Source of the DNA: a virus
Lineage: Duplodnaviria > Heunggongvirae > Uroviricota > Caudoviricetes
Strand: one strand, 5' to 3'
IMG/VR virus record: IMGVR_UViG_2675903606_000015
DNA length: 6,148 nucleotides
Numbering within the stretch: the stretch's first letter is position 1; every line of letters begins with the position of its first letter. Both the position numbers and the translations under genes were made by a program. Below the pieces are notes generated by a model. That model did not search any database, had not been told where the DNA came from, and saw only the letters and a list, made by a program, of their open reading frames with translations. This document shows, in pieces, positions 1 through 6,148 of the stretch.

Positions 1-79
1 CGACGGTCGCCGGTTCGGTGACGCTTAATTCATTAAACACCACTCTGGCGGTTTCGGTCATATCCTGCTGTTTTAGCAT
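1..79 (-). CDS. Partial ORF (first 26 codons, runs off the left edge); hypothetical first gene downstream of the Q terminator
   Basis: Minus-strand ATG at 79..77 (second in-frame ATG at 61..59) is open to position 1: MLKQQDMTETARVVFNELSVTEPATV. It lies ~120 bp downstream of the tR'-like hairpin. Absent from the ORF track only because it is short. No family recognised. Confidence 0.3.
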   Translation of the reverse strand, partial: MLKQQDMTETARVVFNELSVTEPATV

Positions 80-202
80 GCCTTTTTCCCTTTTCCGGTT
101 AACGTGACACACCAATAACTCTTGTCGAAAAAGCCAGCAAGCTGAAAGAACGGTATTAATAACCACCAGCGAATTTATTGCGCTGCTGTATATTACGGAC
201 AC

Positions 203-223
203 AAAAAAACCACCTTCCGGTGG
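203..223 (-). terminator. Rho-independent terminator downstream of Q (tR'-like position)
   Basis: On the minus strand, CCACC-GGAA-GGTGG hairpin (plus 210-223) followed directly by a T7 run (plus 203-209). The plus-strand version lacks a U-tract, so it is unidirectional. About 100 nt downstream of the Q stop. Confidence 0.5.
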
Positions 224-320
224 CTTCCTTGTGCGAAAAAACTTGCATTTCGCCTCGCGATACAGCTTTGCGAAGCTTACAGGAATTCAAGCTGTTTCTG
301 CGTAAAAAAGCAAGCTTTTT

Positions 321-863
321 TTATCGAAATGAATCGTGCATAGGTACATAAAGCATGTGTTCAGCCACGGCTAACCAACCTGCAATACGTTTCTCACATG
401 TGCTGAAACACCATTCCGGGTGAGTACGATTTAAACATTCTGCCATTTTTCTCTTACTCATTCCCCGTCCTTCGTACCTTTGCCGGAGAATATTGATTAG
501 CCCGGGATATTCCCCAAGCACCTCACTGATAACGCGATCAATAATCAACGCCTCTGTGTCTGTACAATGTGACAACCAGCTCTTCTGCTTCCCTCTGGTC
601 ATATCCCGAAAAAATGCCTCAAGTTCCGGTTTTTCCAGCCCGGATTTCTTCATGCTGCGTAAAACCTCATTAACTGCTGTTTTCGTCAGCCTTTTCGAAA
701 CCAGTAACCGGTTAAACATATTTCCGGATTTACCCCCACCGATATACGACCACCGCCCCCACATCCGTAATTTCCCCTGGATCCAGACTGCTTCCAGCGT
801 GTTCAGGCGTAAATGTTCGCCGCTTTTGCCTGTAATTTCCGGATATATCATATTTACGCTCAC
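321..863 (-). CDS. Late-gene antiterminator Q-like protein (phage 82/QuuD-like family suspected), 180 aa
   Basis: Intact 180-aa ORF. GTG start at 863 overlaps the rusA stop (GTGA); alternative ATG at 851. Position immediately downstream of rusA and upstream of a terminator is canonical for Q. WG-W motif near the N-terminus and a C-terminal Cys cluster. Family assignment from memory only. Confidence 0.6.
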   Translation of the reverse strand: MSVNMIYPEITGKSGEHLRLNTLEAVWIQGKLRMWGRWSYIGGGKSGNMFNRLLVSKRLTKTAVNEVLRSMKKSGLEKPELEAFFRDMTRGKQKSWLSHCTDTEALIIDRVISEVLGEYPGLINILRQRYEGRGMSKRKMAECLNRTHPEWCFSTCEKRIAGWLAVAEHMLYVPMHDSFR

Positions 864-1219
864 TCACTCTCAATTTTGTAAATCTTCACACCCAGCCGTC
901 CACCAGATACTGGCTGACCACGTACAATATTGATTTCATCAAACTGCTCGTCATCAATGAGCACTCCCGCATGCGTCAGCGCATCCAGCGGTGCTTTCAG
1001 AATATTGTCCAGGTCACGACGACGCTTATCCGGTGGCTCTGCAATAATTTTTATTGCCAGCCGTCCGGACAGGCTTAATTTCAGTCGCTGCTGGCGAACA
1101 ATAAGCGCCACTGCCCGGCGATAACGCTCCCCGGCTTTTGATACAAAATATGTGCTGCCACGGCGTCGCCAGTAGGTGTTCACCGTCGGCGGGTAAGGTA
1201 AAACCAAATCTATGAGCAT
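860..1219 (-). CDS. rusA: RusA-family crossover junction endodeoxyribonuclease (Holliday junction resolvase), copy 1
   Basis: 119-aa ORF with LPYPPTVNTYWRRR and PDKRRRDLDNILKAPLDALTHAGVLIDDEQF motifs that align to E. coli RusA. Strong SD (AAGAGGTGA) 3 nt upstream of ATG at 1219. Confidence 0.85.
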   Translation of the reverse strand: MLIDLVLPYPPTVNTYWRRRGSTYFVSKAGERYRRAVALIVRQQRLKLSLSGRLAIKIIAEPPDKRRRDLDNILKAPLDALTHAGVLIDDEQFDEINIVRGQPVSGGRLGVKIYKIESE

Positions 1220-1231
1220 CAGTCACCTCTT

Positions 1232-2121
1232 TTACCCGAGCACGCCAGTCGCAAAGGCGTGATCAAGAAAACGAAAAATTAACTCAATCTGAGAGCCGTA
1301 CTTTTTCTCAAACTCCAGCGGGTCTGCATGAAGTTCGTTGTGGTGCTCCCGGCACAACGGTAACGTGAAAATATCGTGGGCCTTTGTCCCCATTCCCCCC
1401 TGACCATGACCAATCAGGTGATGCGGATCGTCAGCAGGCTTACCACAACACGCACACGGCTGTGTCTTTACCCAGCGCGTGTATTTCTCGTTAACCCAGC
1501 GGCGACGTTTAGGTCGTTTCATGAAAGATTCCGGAGACTCAGGATCAACGGCAATGCTGACCACCGTCTTTTCCTGTGGTGGGTTCTGTTGCTGGTGGGC
1601 GTGAGGCAGCGGCGCAAGATTTTTTGTGCGCTGTTTCAGTATGCTGGTGGCGGTCTGCTCTCCCGGCACGATGTCGCTTTCACGGTACATTGAGCGGATT
1701 TTTTCCGCACGCAACCCCAGCGAACGACGTAATACCGCTTCCGGTAGCGCGTCCGCCACCTGATTGCGGACCGCCCACCAGGATAATTCAGCCAGAGATA
1801 ATTCACGCTCCTGCGTACCGCTTATTGCGTGACCGATGACGTCAATCATCCAGGCTGTCAGATTTTGTTGAGCAAGCTGCCCGAGTGATTCGGATGTCTG
1901 GTCGCGCAGCTGGTTGTCGCAGTGCCAGCACAACACCATTGCGCCGGTACCATAACGGTGAATGACGGTTTCGCTGTGATGATAATCGCCGTGTGGCCAC
2001 TGGCAGGATTTAATATGGCGCAACAGCCAGTCAGACAATGCACCAGCACCACCAGCAGCACGAATCACCCGTGCGTTACTGAAAAACGGCAGCAATGTTT
2101 TGTCTTCCACTAGCGGCTGGA
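1232..2121 (-). pseudogene. DUF968 (YdfU-like) gene, 5'-truncated copy lacking about the first 53 codons
   Basis: Matches the C-terminal ~296 codons of the full copy at 2630..3679. Homology ends abruptly at 2121, where sequence switches to Q-internal sequence. The track ORF 1232..2137 uses a fortuitous GTG inside the Q fragment with no convincing SD. Stop TAA at 1234..1232. Confidence 0.6.
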
Positions 2122-2261
2122 CCGGATTTACCCCCACCGATATACGACCACCGCCCCCACATCCGTAATTTCCCCTGGATCCAGACTGCTTCCAGCGTGT
2201 TCAGGCGTAAATGTTCGCCGCTTTTGCCTGTAATTTCCGGATATATCATATTTACGCTCAC
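2122..2261 (-). pseudogene. Q-like antiterminator 5' fragment (first 47 codons only)
   Basis: Identical to 724..863. Reading frame runs past the junction at 2121 into out-of-frame DUF968 sequence and stops at 2076 (track ORF 2076..2261, 61 aa). Confidence 0.7.
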
Positions 2262-2617
2262 TCACTCTCAATTTTGTAAATCTTCACACCCAGCCGTCCA
2301 CCAGATACTGGCTGACCACGTACAATATTGATTTCATCAAACTGCTCGTCATCAATGAGCACTCCCGCATGCGTCAGCGCATCCAGCGGTGCTTTCAGAA
2401 TATTGTCCAGGTCACGACGACGCTTATCCGGTGGCTCTGCAATAATTTTTATTGCCAGCCGTCCGGACAGGCTTAATTTCAGTCGCTGCTGGCGAACAAT
2501 AAGCGCCACTGCCCGGCGATAACGCTCCCCGGCTTTTGATACAAAATATGTGCTGCCACGGCGTCGCCAGTAAGTGTTCACCGTCGGCGGGTAAGGTAAA
2601 ACCAAATCTATGAGCAT
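2258..2617 (-). CDS. rusA: RusA-family Holliday junction resolvase, copy 2 (intact)
   Basis: Protein identical to copy 1. One synonymous nucleotide difference (2573 A vs 1175 G). Same SD. Confidence 0.85.
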   Translation of the reverse strand: MLIDLVLPYPPTVNTYWRRRGSTYFVSKAGERYRRAVALIVRQQRLKLSLSGRLAIKIIAEPPDKRRRDLDNILKAPLDALTHAGVLIDDEQFDEINIVRGQPVSGGRLGVKIYKIESE

Positions 2618-2629
2618 CAGTCACCTCTT

Positions 2630-3679
2630 TTACCCGAGCACGCCAGTCGCAAAGGCGTGATCAAGAAAACGAAAAATTAACTCAATCTGAGAGCCGTACT
2701 TTTTCTCAAACTCCAGCGGGTCTGCATGAAGTTCGTTGTGGTGCTCCCGGCACAACGGTAACGTGAAAATATCGTGGGCCTTTGTCCCCATTCCCCCCTG
2801 ACCATGACCAATCAGGTGATGCGGATCGTCAGCAGGCTTACCACAACACGCACACGGCTGTGTCTTTACCCAGCGCGTGTATTTCTCATTTACCCAGCGG
2901 CGACGTTTAGGTCGTTTCATGAAGGATTCCGGAGACTCCGGATCAACGGCAATGCTGACCACCGTCTTTTCCTGTGGTGGGTTCTGTTGCTGGTGGGTGT
3001 GAGACGGTAGCGCAATATTTTTTGTGCGCTGCTTCAGTATGCTGGTGGCGGTCTGTTCTCCCGGTATGATGTCGCTTTCACGGTATACGGAGCGGATTTT
3101 TTCCGCTGGTAATCCCAGCGAACGACGCGCTACTGCCTCAGGTAGTGCATCCACCACCTGATTGCAGGCCGCCCACCAGGATAATTCGGCCAGCGATAAC
3201 TCCCTCTCCTGCGTACCGCTTATTGCGTGACGGATGACATCAATCATCCAAGCAACCAGATTCTGCTGAGCAAGTTGATCGAGTGATTCTGATGTCTGGT
3301 CGCGCAGCTGGTTGTCACAGTGCCAGCACAACACCATTGCGCCGGTACCATAACGGTGAATGACGGTTTCGCTGTGATGATAATCGCCGTGTGGCCACTG
3401 GCAGGATTTAATATGGCGCAACAGCCAGTCAGACAATGCACCAGCACCACCAGCAGCACGAATCACCCGTGCGTTACTGAAAAACGGCAGCAATGTTTTG
3501 TCTTCCACTAGCGGCTGGCGAACGGCAGGAACAACCCCGGACGGCAGATTACGCATGCTTTTCGGTTCCGGCTCCACCAGTACCCGGGTATTGTGGAATA
3601 CCGGCATGGATTCACGGCCCGGCTTAACGATCACCAGCCCGAGTTCCGGTACCAGAACAGGTCGAAGTAATACCCGCAC
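2630..3679 (-). CDS. DUF968 (YdfU-like) protein, full length 349 aa, with C-terminal Cys/His-rich HNH-like zinc-finger motif
   Basis: GTG start at 3679 preceded by GGAGGT SD. C-terminus CACCGKPADDPHHLIGHGQ...LCREHHNELH. Length matches E. coli YdfU (349 aa, from memory). This is the only copy with both N- and C-terminal parts. Confidence 0.7.
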   Translation of the reverse strand: MRVLLRPVLVPELGLVIVKPGRESMPVFHNTRVLVEPEPKSMRNLPSGVVPAVRQPLVEDKTLLPFFSNARVIRAAGGAGALSDWLLRHIKSCQWPHGDYHHSETVIHRYGTGAMVLCWHCDNQLRDQTSESLDQLAQQNLVAWMIDVIRHAISGTQERELSLAELSWWAACNQVVDALPEAVARRSLGLPAEKIRSVYRESDIIPGEQTATSILKQRTKNIALPSHTHQQQNPPQEKTVVSIAVDPESPESFMKRPKRRRWVNEKYTRWVKTQPCACCGKPADDPHHLIGHGQGGMGTKAHDIFTLPLCREHHNELHADPLEFEKKYGSQIELIFRFLDHAFATGVLG

Positions 3680-3680
3680 G

Positions 3681-3892
3681 TTACCTCCAGATGCGTTGCT
3701 GGAATGTGCGGGACGGACGCGGCGGGCGTTCGGAATAAAGGAGCCTGACGTAGATTATCCAGTGACGGTAGTCGAGGCTAAGGGCTTTCTTAAACTCATA
3801 CCCACGTCTGCGGTAGTTATGAATCAGCCATTCGGCCTGTTCTTCAGTGCAGGGATCGTGCTGATACCAGTCATATTTGAATGTGTGAGAAA
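3681..3892 (-). pseudogene. 3' fragment (about 70 C-terminal codons) of the 108-aa hypothetical gene
   Basis: Identical to 4697..4908. Loses homology at the 3892|3893 junction. No start codon of its own. Contains the SD for the downstream DUF968 copy. Confidence 0.6.
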
Positions 3893-4695
3893 GTGTATTT
3901 CTCGTTAACCCAGCGGCGACGTTTAGGTCGTTTCATGAAAGATTCCGGAGACTCAGGATCAACGGCAATGCTGACCACCGTCTTTTCCTGTGGTGGGTTC
4001 TGTTGCTGGTGGGCGTGAGGCAGCGGCGCAAGATTTTTTGTGCGCTGTTTCAGTATGCTGGTGGCGGTCTGCTCTCCCGGCACGATGTCGCTTTCACGGT
4101 ACATTGAGCGGATTTTTTCCGCACGCAACCCCAGCGAACGACGTAATACCGCTTCCGGTAGCGCGTCCGCCACCTGATTGCGGACCGCCCACCAGGATAA
4201 TTCAGCCAGAGATAATTCACGCTCCTGCGTACCGCTTATTGCGTGACCGATGACGTCAATCATCCAGGCTGTCAGATTTTGTTGAGCAAGCTGCCCGAGT
4301 GATTCGGATGTCTGGTCGCGCAGCTGGTTGTCGCAGTGCCAGCACAACACCATTGCGCCGGTACCATAACGGTGAATGACGGTTTCGCTGTGATGATAAT
4401 CGCCGTGTGGCCACTGGCAGGATTTAATATGGCGCAACAGCCAGTCAGACAATGCACCAGCACCACCAGCAGCACGAATCACCCGTGCGTTACTGAAAAA
4501 CGGCAGCAATGTTTTGTCTTCCACTAGCGGCTGGCGAACGGCAGGAACAACCCCGGACGGCAGATTACGCATGCTTTTCGGTTCCGGCTCCACCAGTACC
4601 CGGGTATTGTGGAATACCGGCATGGATTCACGGCCCGGCTTAACGATCACCAGCCCAAGTTCCGGTACCAGAACAGGTCGAAGTAATACCCGCAC
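3893..4695 (-). pseudogene. DUF968 (YdfU-like) gene, 3'-truncated copy (N-terminal 268 codons, lacks the Cys/His domain)
   Basis: GTG start at 4695 with GGAGGT SD. Identical to the copy-1 allele over the shared region. After codon ~268 the frame enters the out-of-frame 108-aa gene fragment and stops at 3871 (track ORF 3871..4695, 274 aa ending FSHIQI). Confidence 0.6.
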
Positions 4696-4696
4696 G

Positions 4697-5023
4697 TTAC
4701 CTCCAGATGCGTTGCTGGAATGTGCGGGACGGACGCGGCGGGCGTTCGGAATAAAGGAGCCTGACGTAGATTATCCAGTGACGGTAGTCGAGGCTAAGGG
4801 CTTTCTTAAACTCATACCCACGTCTGCGGTAGTTATGAATCAGCCATTCGGCCTGTTCTTCAGTGCAGGGATCGTGCTGATACCAGTCATATTTGAATGT
4901 GTGAGAATACCGCCCTTGCCTGCTGGCAGGGGCGATATCAGAATTGTGATGTTTGGTATTGTGCGCCATCGGTTTTCTCTGCTGGCGCAGCAGGTGCCAG
5001 TTGTTCAAGCTGGCGTGCGGCAA
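4697..5023 (-). CDS. Hypothetical phage protein (108 aa from TTG at 5023; about 90 aa if started at ATG 4969), translationally coupled to DUF968
   Basis: Its TAA stop (4699..4697) is one base from the GTG start of DUF968, and the DUF968 SD lies in its last codons. Protein is basic and Trp/Tyr-rich (KYDWYQHDPCTEEQAEWLIHNYRRRGYEF). No family recognised. Confidence 0.45.
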   Translation of the reverse strand: MPHASLNNWHLLRQQRKPMAHNTKHHNSDIAPASRQGRYSHTFKYDWYQHDPCTEEQAEWLIHNYRRRGYEFKKALSLDYRHWIIYVRLLYSERPPRPSRTFQQRIWR

Positions 5024-5104: not shown

Positions 5105-5362
5105 ATGCGTACAACCCAACAATTCAGCATTACATTAACTAACGAAATGGCTGACATGGTGCGCGCCCGTGTGGCTTCCGGTGCCTATGCTTCAGAAAGC
5201 GAGGTCATTCGTGAAGGGCTTCGCGCACTGAATGAGCGCGATAAAGCAATCGAAGCGTGGTTAACGCATTCAGCCGCCCCCTCTCTTGATTCTATCCGCG
5301 AAAACCCAAACAACGGACGCTCCATTTCACAGGTTCGCGCCGCGATTCGATCCGGGAAGTAA
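5105..5362 (+). CDS. parD: ParD-type (COG3609-like, ribbon-helix-helix) type II antitoxin, 85 aa
   Basis: ATG at 5105 with GAGG 8 nt upstream; the track ORF start at 5042 would lie inside the promoter/operator. Sequence VRARVASGAYASESEVIREGLRALNERDKAIEAWL matches the conserved ParD/CopG-like core. Stop is 5 nt before the toxin ATG. Confidence 0.7.
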   Translation: MRTTQQFSITLTNEMADMVRARVASGAYASESEVIREGLRALNERDKAIEAWLTHSAAPSLDSIRENPNNGRSISQVRAAIRSGK

Positions 5363-5367
5363 TCTGC

Positions 5368-5667
5368 ATGACATATGAAGTCATCATTACTCCTGAGGCC
5401 GAACAACAAATAATCAACCTGCACAGGTATATAACGGAGAAAGCAGGGAACGTCATTGCTGACAATTATGCCAATGCGCTTCTTGATTATCTTGATGGGT
5501 TTTCTACATTCCCGCATCGGGGCAATAAACGCGATGATATTCGCCAGGGGATGCGGGTAACTCATTTCCGCCACAGAACGATTATTGCTTTTGCCGTTGA
5601 TAGCAGAAAAGTCTTTATTGTCGGTATCTATCATGGTGGGCAAAGTTATGAAACCGATTTCTTATAA
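5368..5667 (+). CDS. parE: ParE/RelE-superfamily type II toxin, 99 aa
   Basis: Small basic protein directly downstream of the RHH antitoxin. C-terminal FPHRGNKRDDIRQGMRVTHFRHRTIIAFAVDSRKVFIVGIYHGGQSY resembles the ParE fold signature. Classic antitoxin-then-toxin operon order. Confidence 0.7.
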   Translation: MTYEVIITPEAEQQIINLHRYITEKAGNVIADNYANALLDYLDGFSTFPHRGNKRDDIRQGMRVTHFRHRTIIAFAVDSRKVFIVGIYHGGQSYETDFL

Positions 5668-5740
5668 ACTTTTACCCACATCATTCCGGTGTTAGAATTA
5701 ACCGTCCGCCCCCCTCTCTTACTGGCGGATTCGTAGGCTA

Positions 5741-5775
5741 TATAAATCAAAGATCCCGGCTCATGTTTATGTCGG
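5741..5775 (+). terminator. Intrinsic terminator after parE, possibly bidirectional
   Basis: Stem AGATCCCGGC (5741-5750) / GTCGGGATCT (5761-5770) with a 10-nt loop, followed by T6 (5770-5775). On the minus strand the same hairpin is followed by TTGATTTATATA, so it may also end the converging minus-strand ORFs. Confidence 0.6.
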
Positions 5776-5792
5776 GATCTTTTTTCGGCGAT

Positions 5793-5876
5793 TTATCCCC
5801 AGCGGCAAATCGAATACACCACCAGCGCCACCGCCATCGCAATTCCTACCGTTGTGAATGCTTCAGGCCAGGTCAT
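5793..5876 (-). CDS. 27-codon hydrophobic small ORF (predicted single-pass membrane peptide)
   Basis: MTWPEAFTTVGIAMAVALVVYSICRWG. Its ATG (5876..5874) overlaps the TGA stop of the upstream ORF (5875..5873) as ATGA. Ends with TAA at 5795..5793, just before the terminator. Not in the ORF track because it is short. Confidence 0.4.
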   Translation of the reverse strand: MTWPEAFTTVGIAMAVALVVYSICRWG

Positions 5877-6148
5877 CGTAAAATATCCTCCACGCTTATC
5901 AGTCCGTTCCGCTCCAGATAACTCATCGCCTTATCCGGTAATTTGCAGTCTGGCTTCGCTTTCCTCAGTTGCCAGGTTAACTGCTTTACCAGCATGGTTA
6001 ACTCATCGACCAGACGCTGATATCCCACTGGTTTGTATTCATGCAATTTACCGGCTGGCTCTGCTGCCAGCGATACCAGTGCGATTTCCAGAACAGCAAT
6101 ATCCATCTTATATGTGCGGATGATGTCATGGTCGATTGTGCCCGGTAT
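5873..6148 (-). CDS. Partial ORF of unknown function (C-terminal 91 codons; N-terminus beyond the right edge)
   Basis: Minus-strand frame is open from 6148 with no stop; the track shows only the part from the internal Met at 6106. Protein-like composition (…YLERNGLISVEDILR), whereas the antisense ORF 5854..6123 is Pro/Ser/Leu-rich and shadow-like. Confidence 0.45.
   Translation of the reverse strand: MPGTIDHDIIRTYKMDIAVLEIALVSLAAEPAGKLHEYKPVGYQRLVDELTMLVKQLTWQLRKAKPDCKLPDKAMSYLERNGLISVEDILR

Follow-up and report, generated by a model that had tools for sequence, protein, structure and literature searches.

Comparative sequence evidence identifies a 27-codon open reading frame (ORF) in a lambdoid, Stx-phage-like prophage of E. 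coli as the form in E. coli phages of a previously undescribed microprotein family of phages (~24–35 amino acids), which we refer to as the ‘WPEAF’ family. The window, that is, the whole 6,148-nt stretch of DNA that was analysed, covers part of this prophage. A sequence-only reading had pointed to the 27-codon ORF, to the overlap of its ATG with the stop codon of the ORF at the right edge of the window and to a hairpin after its own stop. All three are present, and the strand, which that reading left unstated, is minus (Table 1).

Table 1 Features of the window around the small ORF (position 1 is the first letter of the window)
Feature	Position	Strand	Remarks
Small ORF, 27 codons, ATG to TAA	5793..5876	minus	MTWPEAFTTVGIAMAVALVVYSICRWG; predicted single-pass membrane microprotein of the WPEAF family; basis: sequence, intactness, codon-position pattern, pN/pS, hydropathy and wider family
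Shine–Dalgarno GGAGG	5887..5891	minus	10 nt 5′ of the small-ORF ATG; within the final codons of the upstream gene
ATGA start/stop overlap with upstream gene	5873..5876	minus	Translational coupling signal; kept behind all unrelated upstream genes; ATGA or GTGA in distant high-GC homologues too
Upstream 114-aa hypothetical gene, 3′ part (91 codons and stop)	5873..6148	minus	WP_000206830.1 in E. coli O26:H11 11368; cut by right window edge
GC-rich 10-bp hairpin, predicted bidirectional intrinsic terminator	5749..5782	both	Plus strand: then T6 (5780-5785), ends parDE; minus strand: then UUUGAUUUAUAUA; basis: fold energies
parD (5105-5362) and parE (5368-5667), convergent type II toxin–antitoxin pair	5105..5667	plus	PGAP names in the 99.8%-identical O26:H11 locus, and window ORFs

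The start codon occupies positions 5876–5874 and the TAA stop 5795–5793, and ATG 5876 is the earliest start codon downstream of the preceding in-frame stop in the ORF list. Read on the minus strand, the junction is ...GTGGAGGATATTTTACG ATG ACC TGG ... GGA TAA, in which the TGA of the upstream gene (5875–5873) overlaps the start codon of the small ORF. The coupling to the upstream gene that had been proposed from this ATGA is upheld by its retention behind every unrelated gene that we found upstream. Programmed −1 frameshifting into the small ORF was rejected, as no slippery heptamer precedes the ATGA in any context. Within the window, no promoter-like site was found upstream of the ORF on the minus strand.

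The description of the ORF as a small, hydrophobic, coding gene with a single transmembrane (TM) helix agrees both with the hydropathy of the peptide (best 19-residue Kyte–Doolittle mean, 2.11) and with the conservation of its frame. Because ORFs of this size are common here (27 ORFs of at least 20 amino acids overlap the same 1.6 kb of the window), a length of 27 codons is not by itself beyond chance, and conservation is therefore the test. Full-length homologues were found by tblastn against phage genomes in 94 phage records at 59–100% identity; the carriers include 933W, VT1-Sakai, VT2-Sakai, BP-4795, Min27, PhiR phages and the P1-like SJ46. Variation in the peptide is conservative in the 11 loci that were inspected (MNWPEAFTAVGVAIAVAFILYSLFRWG, MSWPDAIVTLGVVFAAAFVVFSICRWG and others), and one locus (L012) encodes a peptide identical to that of the window with 8 synonymous differences.

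A pattern scan of IMG/VR and GTDB, in which the first six and last three codons were fixed and the spacing between them (40–58 nt) was free, returned 137 copies, all of them in frame and without internal stops (134 of 84 nt and 3 of 75 nt). These copies represent 33 protein variants and 56 DNA variants, with conservative hydrophobic replacements. The exact-codon pattern is too narrow to reach other genera. Its GTDB matches come from E. coli and Shigella only, plus a 431-nt Xanthomonas contig, which is likely to be contamination, and one Thalassospira match, which is out of frame and a chance occurrence. A second, 3′-anchored sample contained 129 evaluable copies, of which 120 are intact; the rest comprise two GTG starts, three in-frame 6-nt deletions, one stop-loss extension and three disrupted copies. 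Disruption takes the form of a TAG at codon 3 (in Shigella phage POCJ13 and in L142) or of 1-nt deletions (L150 and L158), which implies that the gene is dispensable in at least some prophages. In POCJ13 (L009, 1501–1634), where the translation reads MT*PEAF..., the RefSeq annotation at this place is instead a 42-aa ORF on the opposite strand (gp73).

Frame conservation and the balance of synonymous and nonsynonymous changes had been put forward as the check on this ORF, and both speak for it. On the unconstrained central 19 codons of the pattern-scan variants, third positions are the most variable (entropy of 0.51, 0.29 and 0.94 at codon positions 1, 2 and 3, respectively), and pN/pS is 0.42 in the ORF frame versus 0.77 and 1.9 in the other two sense frames, both of which contain stops in all variants. 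The plus-strand frame that shares third positions has a pN/pS of 0.37 and, over the central 18 codons, lacks stops in 53 of 54 variants, so pN/pS by itself cannot decide the strand and we rejected it as a sole argument. That the conservation is owed to this antisense ORF, or to a structured RNA or DNA site, is nevertheless extremely improbable. In the window, the antisense frame contains no start codon (ATG, GTG or TTG) from its stop at 5743–5745 up to a GTG at 5854; its stop-to-stop span varies with the flanks from 37 to 112 codons; Rfam gave no match; and the boundaries of the conserved block coincide with the Shine–Dalgarno sequence and stop of the sense ORF. An intact frame, third-position bias, a pN/pS below 1 and a conserved start codon and Shine–Dalgarno sequence are the general marks of a coding gene. 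On these sequence grounds, it is highly probable that the small ORF is a real, translated gene.

The conserved unit extends little beyond the ORF. Over 72 distinct flank contexts, ungapped identity to the window is about 0.25 (random) upstream of −18, 0.53–0.55 in the Shine–Dalgarno bins (−18 to +5) and 0.72–0.96 inside the ORF, and it falls to 0.22 right after the stop. The conserved block thus runs from −18 to +84 relative to the ATG and ends exactly at the stop codon. Of 38 distinct upstream contexts, 36 have GGAGG, GAGG or GGAG at a distance of 5–10 nt before the ATG, whereas 7.5% of background ATGs do. These boundaries identify the Shine–Dalgarno sequence and ORF as a minimal mosaic module (~100 nt) that is inserted right behind varied early-region genes with a 4-nt start/stop overlap. 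Upstream of it, we found at least eight unrelated C-termini, including that of the window (...SVEDILR), DUF551 (...PEPPQEVNQ), the L0139 class (...NIEQKVNQ), EaA and a methyltransferase-like gene. The 114-aa upstream gene of the window is the variable partner and lies outside the conserved module; the C-terminal half of its product matches phrog_660 (E 2e-34), a PHROG entry of unassigned function, and the protein has no match in Pfam, NCBIfam or PADLOC. At least ten unrelated sequences occur downstream: hok/sok in ~39 contexts, a DUF4222 gene that starts 4 nt past the stop and is followed by xis–int in ~45, the parDE hairpin in ~10 and several other terminators.

The universal ATGA coupling would also suit a peptide that serves as a detachable membrane anchor or partner of the upstream-encoded protein, with coupling leading to co-translational assembly and the tethering of DUF551, Ea22-like and other proteins. 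In favour of it, natural in-frame fusions occur, of an Ea22-like protein to the peptide in two diverged sequences (P0095 and P0100; L191, 156–776) and as deletion fusions (P0129, P0130 and P0087), and DUF551, which is upstream in E. coli phages, is also the nearest called gene upstream in an unrelated phage contig of 68% GC (L201). However, the upstream partners are unrelated in sequence, C-termini included, which makes a common binding surface unlikely. Furthermore, fusions are rare (1 of 137) and mostly resemble prophage decay, and in L201 the small ORF lies 148 nt from the DUF551 gene. We consider an anchoring role decidedly unlikely. The deletion-derived fusions join the peptide to the N-terminal half of the 114-aa gene of the window or to a DUF4406 fragment.

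The 84-nt ORF was matched in 1634 of 5426 complete E. coli genomes (about 30%), at 3110 places and up to 7 per genome, often in several prophages that include the Shiga-toxin phages 933W, VT1-Sakai and VT2-Sakai. Plasmids account for 163 of these places, mostly 90–100 kb non-mobilizable replicons of E. coli, Salmonella and one Klebsiella, which are taken to be phage-plasmids. The small ORF also occurs at 81.5% identity in vB_EcoM_TH18 (L006; 133.9 kb, Vequintavirinae), where it lies behind lambdoid-type genes annotated as EaA/Ea22, and a match of the same identity in Av-05 (120.9 kb) falls under a ‘hypothetical protein’ in the tblastn table. These two copies may reflect either accessory-cassette exchange between very different phage types or chimeric assemblies.

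More distant relatives were recovered with a profile of the E. coli variants, which gave 53 matches at E ≤ 1e-3, nearly all of 25–90 amino acids, among 1.84e9 representatives. A second search with a mixed alignment gave 154 matches. One 1340-aa repeat protein (P0086, 15 profile matches) was dismissed as low-complexity repeat noise. Among the distant members are MTWPEAFRDVGYALAAAIMIWALLKYAIGKL, MNWPEAFATVGSLAAVSLMIWAFMKYSGDDDCR, MTWPEAFAIVGLAFAIVSPVIAAVRLGRKQ, MNITNWPEAFTYIGCAFAIAIIFYSMFRWG and a copy in an Acidovorax prophage. The family pattern is M-x-W-P-E-A-F-x-x-V-G-x-A-x-A, followed by the TM helix and a basic tail. W3, P4, A6 and G11 are invariant in the alignment and E5 is present in more than 90% of members. 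Position 15 is A or S in nearly all of them (G-x-x-x-A/S with position 11), most have an aromatic residue near position 21 and K or R beyond the helix, and many members have basic C-terminal tails. As criteria for the family, we propose an N-terminal x-W-P-E/D-A-F/I, G at +8 from the W, a small residue at +12, one TM helix, a basic C-terminal end, a total length under ~45 amino acids and a phage early-operon context; the peptide of the window has W3, P4, E5, A6, F7, G11, A15 and R25.

All of the distant contexts that we inspected are phage early or DNA-metabolism operons, with neighbours such as YqaJ exonuclease, GapR, RusA, SNF2 helicase, HNH, DUF551, PolA and repressor-proximal strings of small genes. 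An ATGA or GTGA overlap with the upstream reading frame recurs in five of these loci (L196, L197, L198, L199 and L201), and in L198 the small ORF is the last early-operon gene ahead of convergent late genes, as in the window. The length of the TM helix is polymorphic in frame: expansion of a hexanucleotide repeat (GCGATG/GCGGTG) yields variants of 29–35 amino acids (...GIAMAMAMAMAVALVV...; P0063, P0065, P0067–P0069 and P0071–P0073). One 42-aa variant (P0020) has a duplicated N-terminal half.

Family members come from contigs of 29–70% GC, and the codons that spell the motif follow the matching usage. One motif in different codons over this range is difficult to account for other than by selection at the peptide level. 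It also bears on the possibility that the peptide sequence has no function of its own, either because what matters is translation to the end of the operon (Rho shielding, or ribosome positioning at the terminator) or because the ORF is a hitch-hiking remnant. The frequent position of the small ORF as the last cistron ahead of a terminator and the disruption of some copies would fit such an account, but a motif conserved in different codons, a pN/pS below 1 and conservative hydrophobic replacements do not, and in ~45 contexts the small ORF is an internal cistron with the next gene 4 nt on. We regard a functionless peptide as very unlikely.

No existing family covers these sequences. None of the members reaches a Pfam threshold; the peptide of the window gives weak TM noise in Pfam and nothing above cutoff in NCBIfam; and PADLOC, Rfam and PDB have no match at the small ORF or its product. 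A weak match to phrog_4612 (another entry of unassigned function; E 0.015–0.019, over profile positions 33–57 of 57) is shared by few relatives, given that only 2 of 28 family members match this profile or the Pfam profile PF19029. phrog_4612 may simply hold N-terminally over-called versions of the small ORF. We found no description of the WPEAF motif or of the peptide in the literature, and the small ORF is not in the supplements of Hücker 2017.

Positions 5600–6148 of the window are 99.8% identical to E. coli O26:H11 str. 11368 and to many STEC genomes of the O26, O103 and O111 types, and phage ArgO145 matches too. On the minus strand of the O26 locus, a DUF1376 O-like gene and P are followed by DUF1627, DUF977, DUF4406, Ea22-like and DUF4014 genes, then by an HNH endonuclease, the 114-aa hypothetical, parD–parE on the opposite strand, a 90-aa hypothetical, DUF968, RusA and DUF1133 (Q-like). 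The small ORF lies at the 3′ end of the 114-aa gene. It had been suspected that annotation misses the ORF, and this is largely so: it is absent from both RefSeq/PGAP loci and all 10 phage GenBank records that we inspected, among them 933W, Stx2 II, ArgO145, VT1-Sakai, PhiR, TH18, POCJ13 and SJ46. A few GenBank submissions do annotate it, as a ‘hypothetical protein’ or ‘bacteriophage protein’ (for example, AOM45384.1 and ASL59396.1). NCBI labels several contig-edge fragments of the small ORF (25–39 amino acids) as ‘DUF551 domain-containing protein, partial’ (P0012, P0018, P0019, P0028, P0037, P0038, P0040, P0049 and others), although they contain no DUF551 sequence. The peptide also shares a 90% cluster with DUF551 proteins of 121 amino acids, but these do not contain it, and we dismissed the link as an artefact of clustering and annotation. 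The DUF551 label on the fragments looks like a propagated mis-annotation or a clustering artefact.

In the left part of the window (1–5000), the DUF968–RusA–DUF1133 (Q-like) segment is tandemly amplified ~2.5 times, with repeat copies at 724–1023/2122–2421 and 1479–1778/2877–3176/3893–4192. Chimeric junction ORFs occur at 2076..2261 (a Q-like N-terminus fused to DUF968 sequence) and 3871..4695 (a truncated DUF968). In the best-matching of the 5426 complete E. coli genomes searched, the same query maps to only ~3.73 kb, with the segment present once. A rare rearrangement or an artefact of assembly would account for the amplification.

The sequence-only reading had also suggested a functional tie between the small ORF and the neighbouring toxin–antitoxin module, and here the comparison went the other way. 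The parDE genes run convergently on the plus strand, are not part of the conserved block and are missing from most contexts, which supports a positional link only and no functional partnership. Because parDE in the window and hok/sok in 933W and many others occupy the junction after the small ORF, this junction looks like an insertion hot spot for toxin–antitoxin ‘morons’. hok/sok starts directly after the small-ORF stop in 933W (L002, 2582–2950; sokW/hokW), in L012 (1584–1953; hokD) and in ~39 IMG/VR loci, and a putative hok promoter (TTGCGG-16 nt-TAGAAT) lies within the first 30 nt past the stop in the hok/sok loci.

The hairpin (5782–5749 when read on the minus strand) starts 10 nt past the small-ORF stop; its predicted fold energy is −19.4 kcal/mol for the minus strand and −21.2 kcal/mol for the plus strand (z ≈ −3). 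A simple terminator scan missed it because its loop is 14 nt long, and folding revealed it. The better T-tract is on the plus strand, which suggests that the hairpin chiefly terminates the convergent parDE and, acting in both directions, also serves the small ORF. It is specific to this context (only ~10 of ~135) and does not travel with the ORF. On the plus strand, right after the parE stop, a promoter-like site (TTTACC-16 nt-TAGAAT with an upstream TG; 5671–5698) would yield a transcript of ~85 nt (region 5700–5790) that ends at the shared hairpin. The transcript may be a small RNA, or the site may be a mere consensus match; Rfam has no match.

The idea that the product of the small ORF is a membrane-acting effector or modulator is a reasonable one. 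Considering all of the evidence, we favour, as the probable explanation, an early-phage microprotein with a single N-out/C-in span that acts by helix packing in the inner membrane. Because the module consists of only the Shine–Dalgarno sequence and the ORF, without a promoter of its own, the small ORF would be transcribed with the delayed-early operon, on the pR side in this prophage. The order here would be O/P-like replication genes, accessory genes, HNH, the 114-aa gene and the small ORF, and then DUF968–RusA–Q-like. Translation would proceed by coupling or reinitiation, aided by the strong Shine–Dalgarno sequence of the ORF itself. The product is very probably a single-span membrane protein, and it would insert into the inner membrane with its acidic N-cap outside and its R/K-containing tail inside. 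This N-out/C-in orientation, which is probable rather than secure, follows from the positive-inside rule, as the N-cap has E5 and no basic residue and the C-terminal ends are R/K-rich in many members; the charge bias is weak in the 27-aa E. coli form (E5 versus R25).

Once inserted, the peptide may pack helix to helix through the face F7-G11-A15-(L18)-S22, which is typical of tight TM–TM packing, against a conserved host inner-membrane protein or against itself, and thereby modify host membrane physiology early in lytic growth. That the motif stays invariant in phages whose GC content differs so widely implies that the peptide interacts in a specific, conserved manner within the host membrane. 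We suggest only tentatively that the peptide modulates a host membrane protein and is not a toxin. A bolder version, in which the WPEAF microprotein serves widely among phages as a conserved early effector and docks through its W-P-E-A-F...G-x-x-x-A face onto one universal inner-membrane machine of Proteobacteria (for example, a component of the divisome, Sec/YidC or FtsH), is improbable. If true, it would make the peptide an unrecognised and very compact host-takeover or exclusion factor that is common to Stx phages, P1-like phage-plasmids and unrelated high- and low-GC phages. With its mutational handles (W3, G11 and A15), the ~100-nt module offers a candidate new phage–host membrane interaction in tractable phages. 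The small ORF is also a concrete case for better small-ORF annotation in prophages, as it is widespread in E. coli, comes close to clinical interest through the Stx phages, lacks annotation in RefSeq and is described by no family database.

Several known systems resemble the small ORF in part. The type I toxins (Hok/Gef, TisB, DinQ, ShoB and Ibs) are likewise short hydrophobic inner-membrane peptides, and the size and single hydrophobic helix of the WPEAF peptide recall TisB, DinQ, ShoB and Ibs in particular. The peptide could thus be a membrane-damaging or depolarising toxin, type I toxin-like or Kil-like, that is made early in lytic growth and arrests the host. Its location in the early accessory regions that also house kil and other host-killing functions, the frequent adjacency of hok/sok and the tolerance of in-frame hexanucleotide expansions of the helix are consistent with this. 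In contrast to the type I toxins, however, the peptide has no toxin family match in Pfam or PADLOC, and no promoter, long 5′ untranslated region or antisense RNA travels with the ORF (block of −18 to +84, Rfam and promoter scan of the window). Type I toxins typically undergo tight translational repression, whereas the small ORF shows the opposite, a strong Shine–Dalgarno sequence with direct coupling, and the invariant WPEAF/G11/A15 pattern suggests specific packing over generic membrane disruption. We therefore consider a toxin unlikely. A holin or antiholin was also rejected, as the small ORF lies between replication or accessory genes and Q-like genes, or in the exo–xis region, with no adjacent lysis genes.

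Small phage proteins that act on host envelope machinery include the SPO1 gp56 division inhibitor, T4 Imm and Sp, HK97 gp15 and lambda Kil and cIII. The small ORF shares with phage early host-targeting proteins its location in early accessory regions, but it has no detectable homology to them and its peptide is much shorter. Exclusion proteins are typically expressed from the prophage, whereas the small ORF has no promoter of its own. The coat proteins of the Pf3/M13 type have the same predicted topology, with a short acidic N-tail outside, one helix and a basic aromatic C-terminal end (RW...), and by analogy with them insertion of the peptide is likely to be Sec-independent or of the YidC type. 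These coats are 44–50-aa virion proteins of filamentous phages, whereas the small ORF belongs to the early operon of tailed phages and is not homologous to them. C-terminal tail anchors of the DUF883_C/ElaB type show weak profile similarity over the helix (PF19029, E 0.04). Membership was rejected, at 13.4–14 bits versus a threshold of 27; the small ORF stands alone and is not the C-terminus of a DUF883 protein.

Small bacterial membrane regulators are a further parallel. KdpF, AcrZ, CydX, MgtS and MgrB are 20–50 amino acids long and have one TM helix, which packs against a larger membrane protein. Identity with KdpF itself was rejected, as the match to TIGR02115 (E 0.024) scores 14.7 bits, far under the 26.85-bit cutoff, and the context is a phage early operon with no kdp genes (kdpFABC). 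The small ORF resembles these regulators in its small size and single TM helix and differs from them in being phage-borne, in residing in early operons and in having its own invariant WPEAF N-cap. We classify it as one of a kind that is already known, the phage-encoded small single-pass membrane proteins, and the WPEAF family itself as new.
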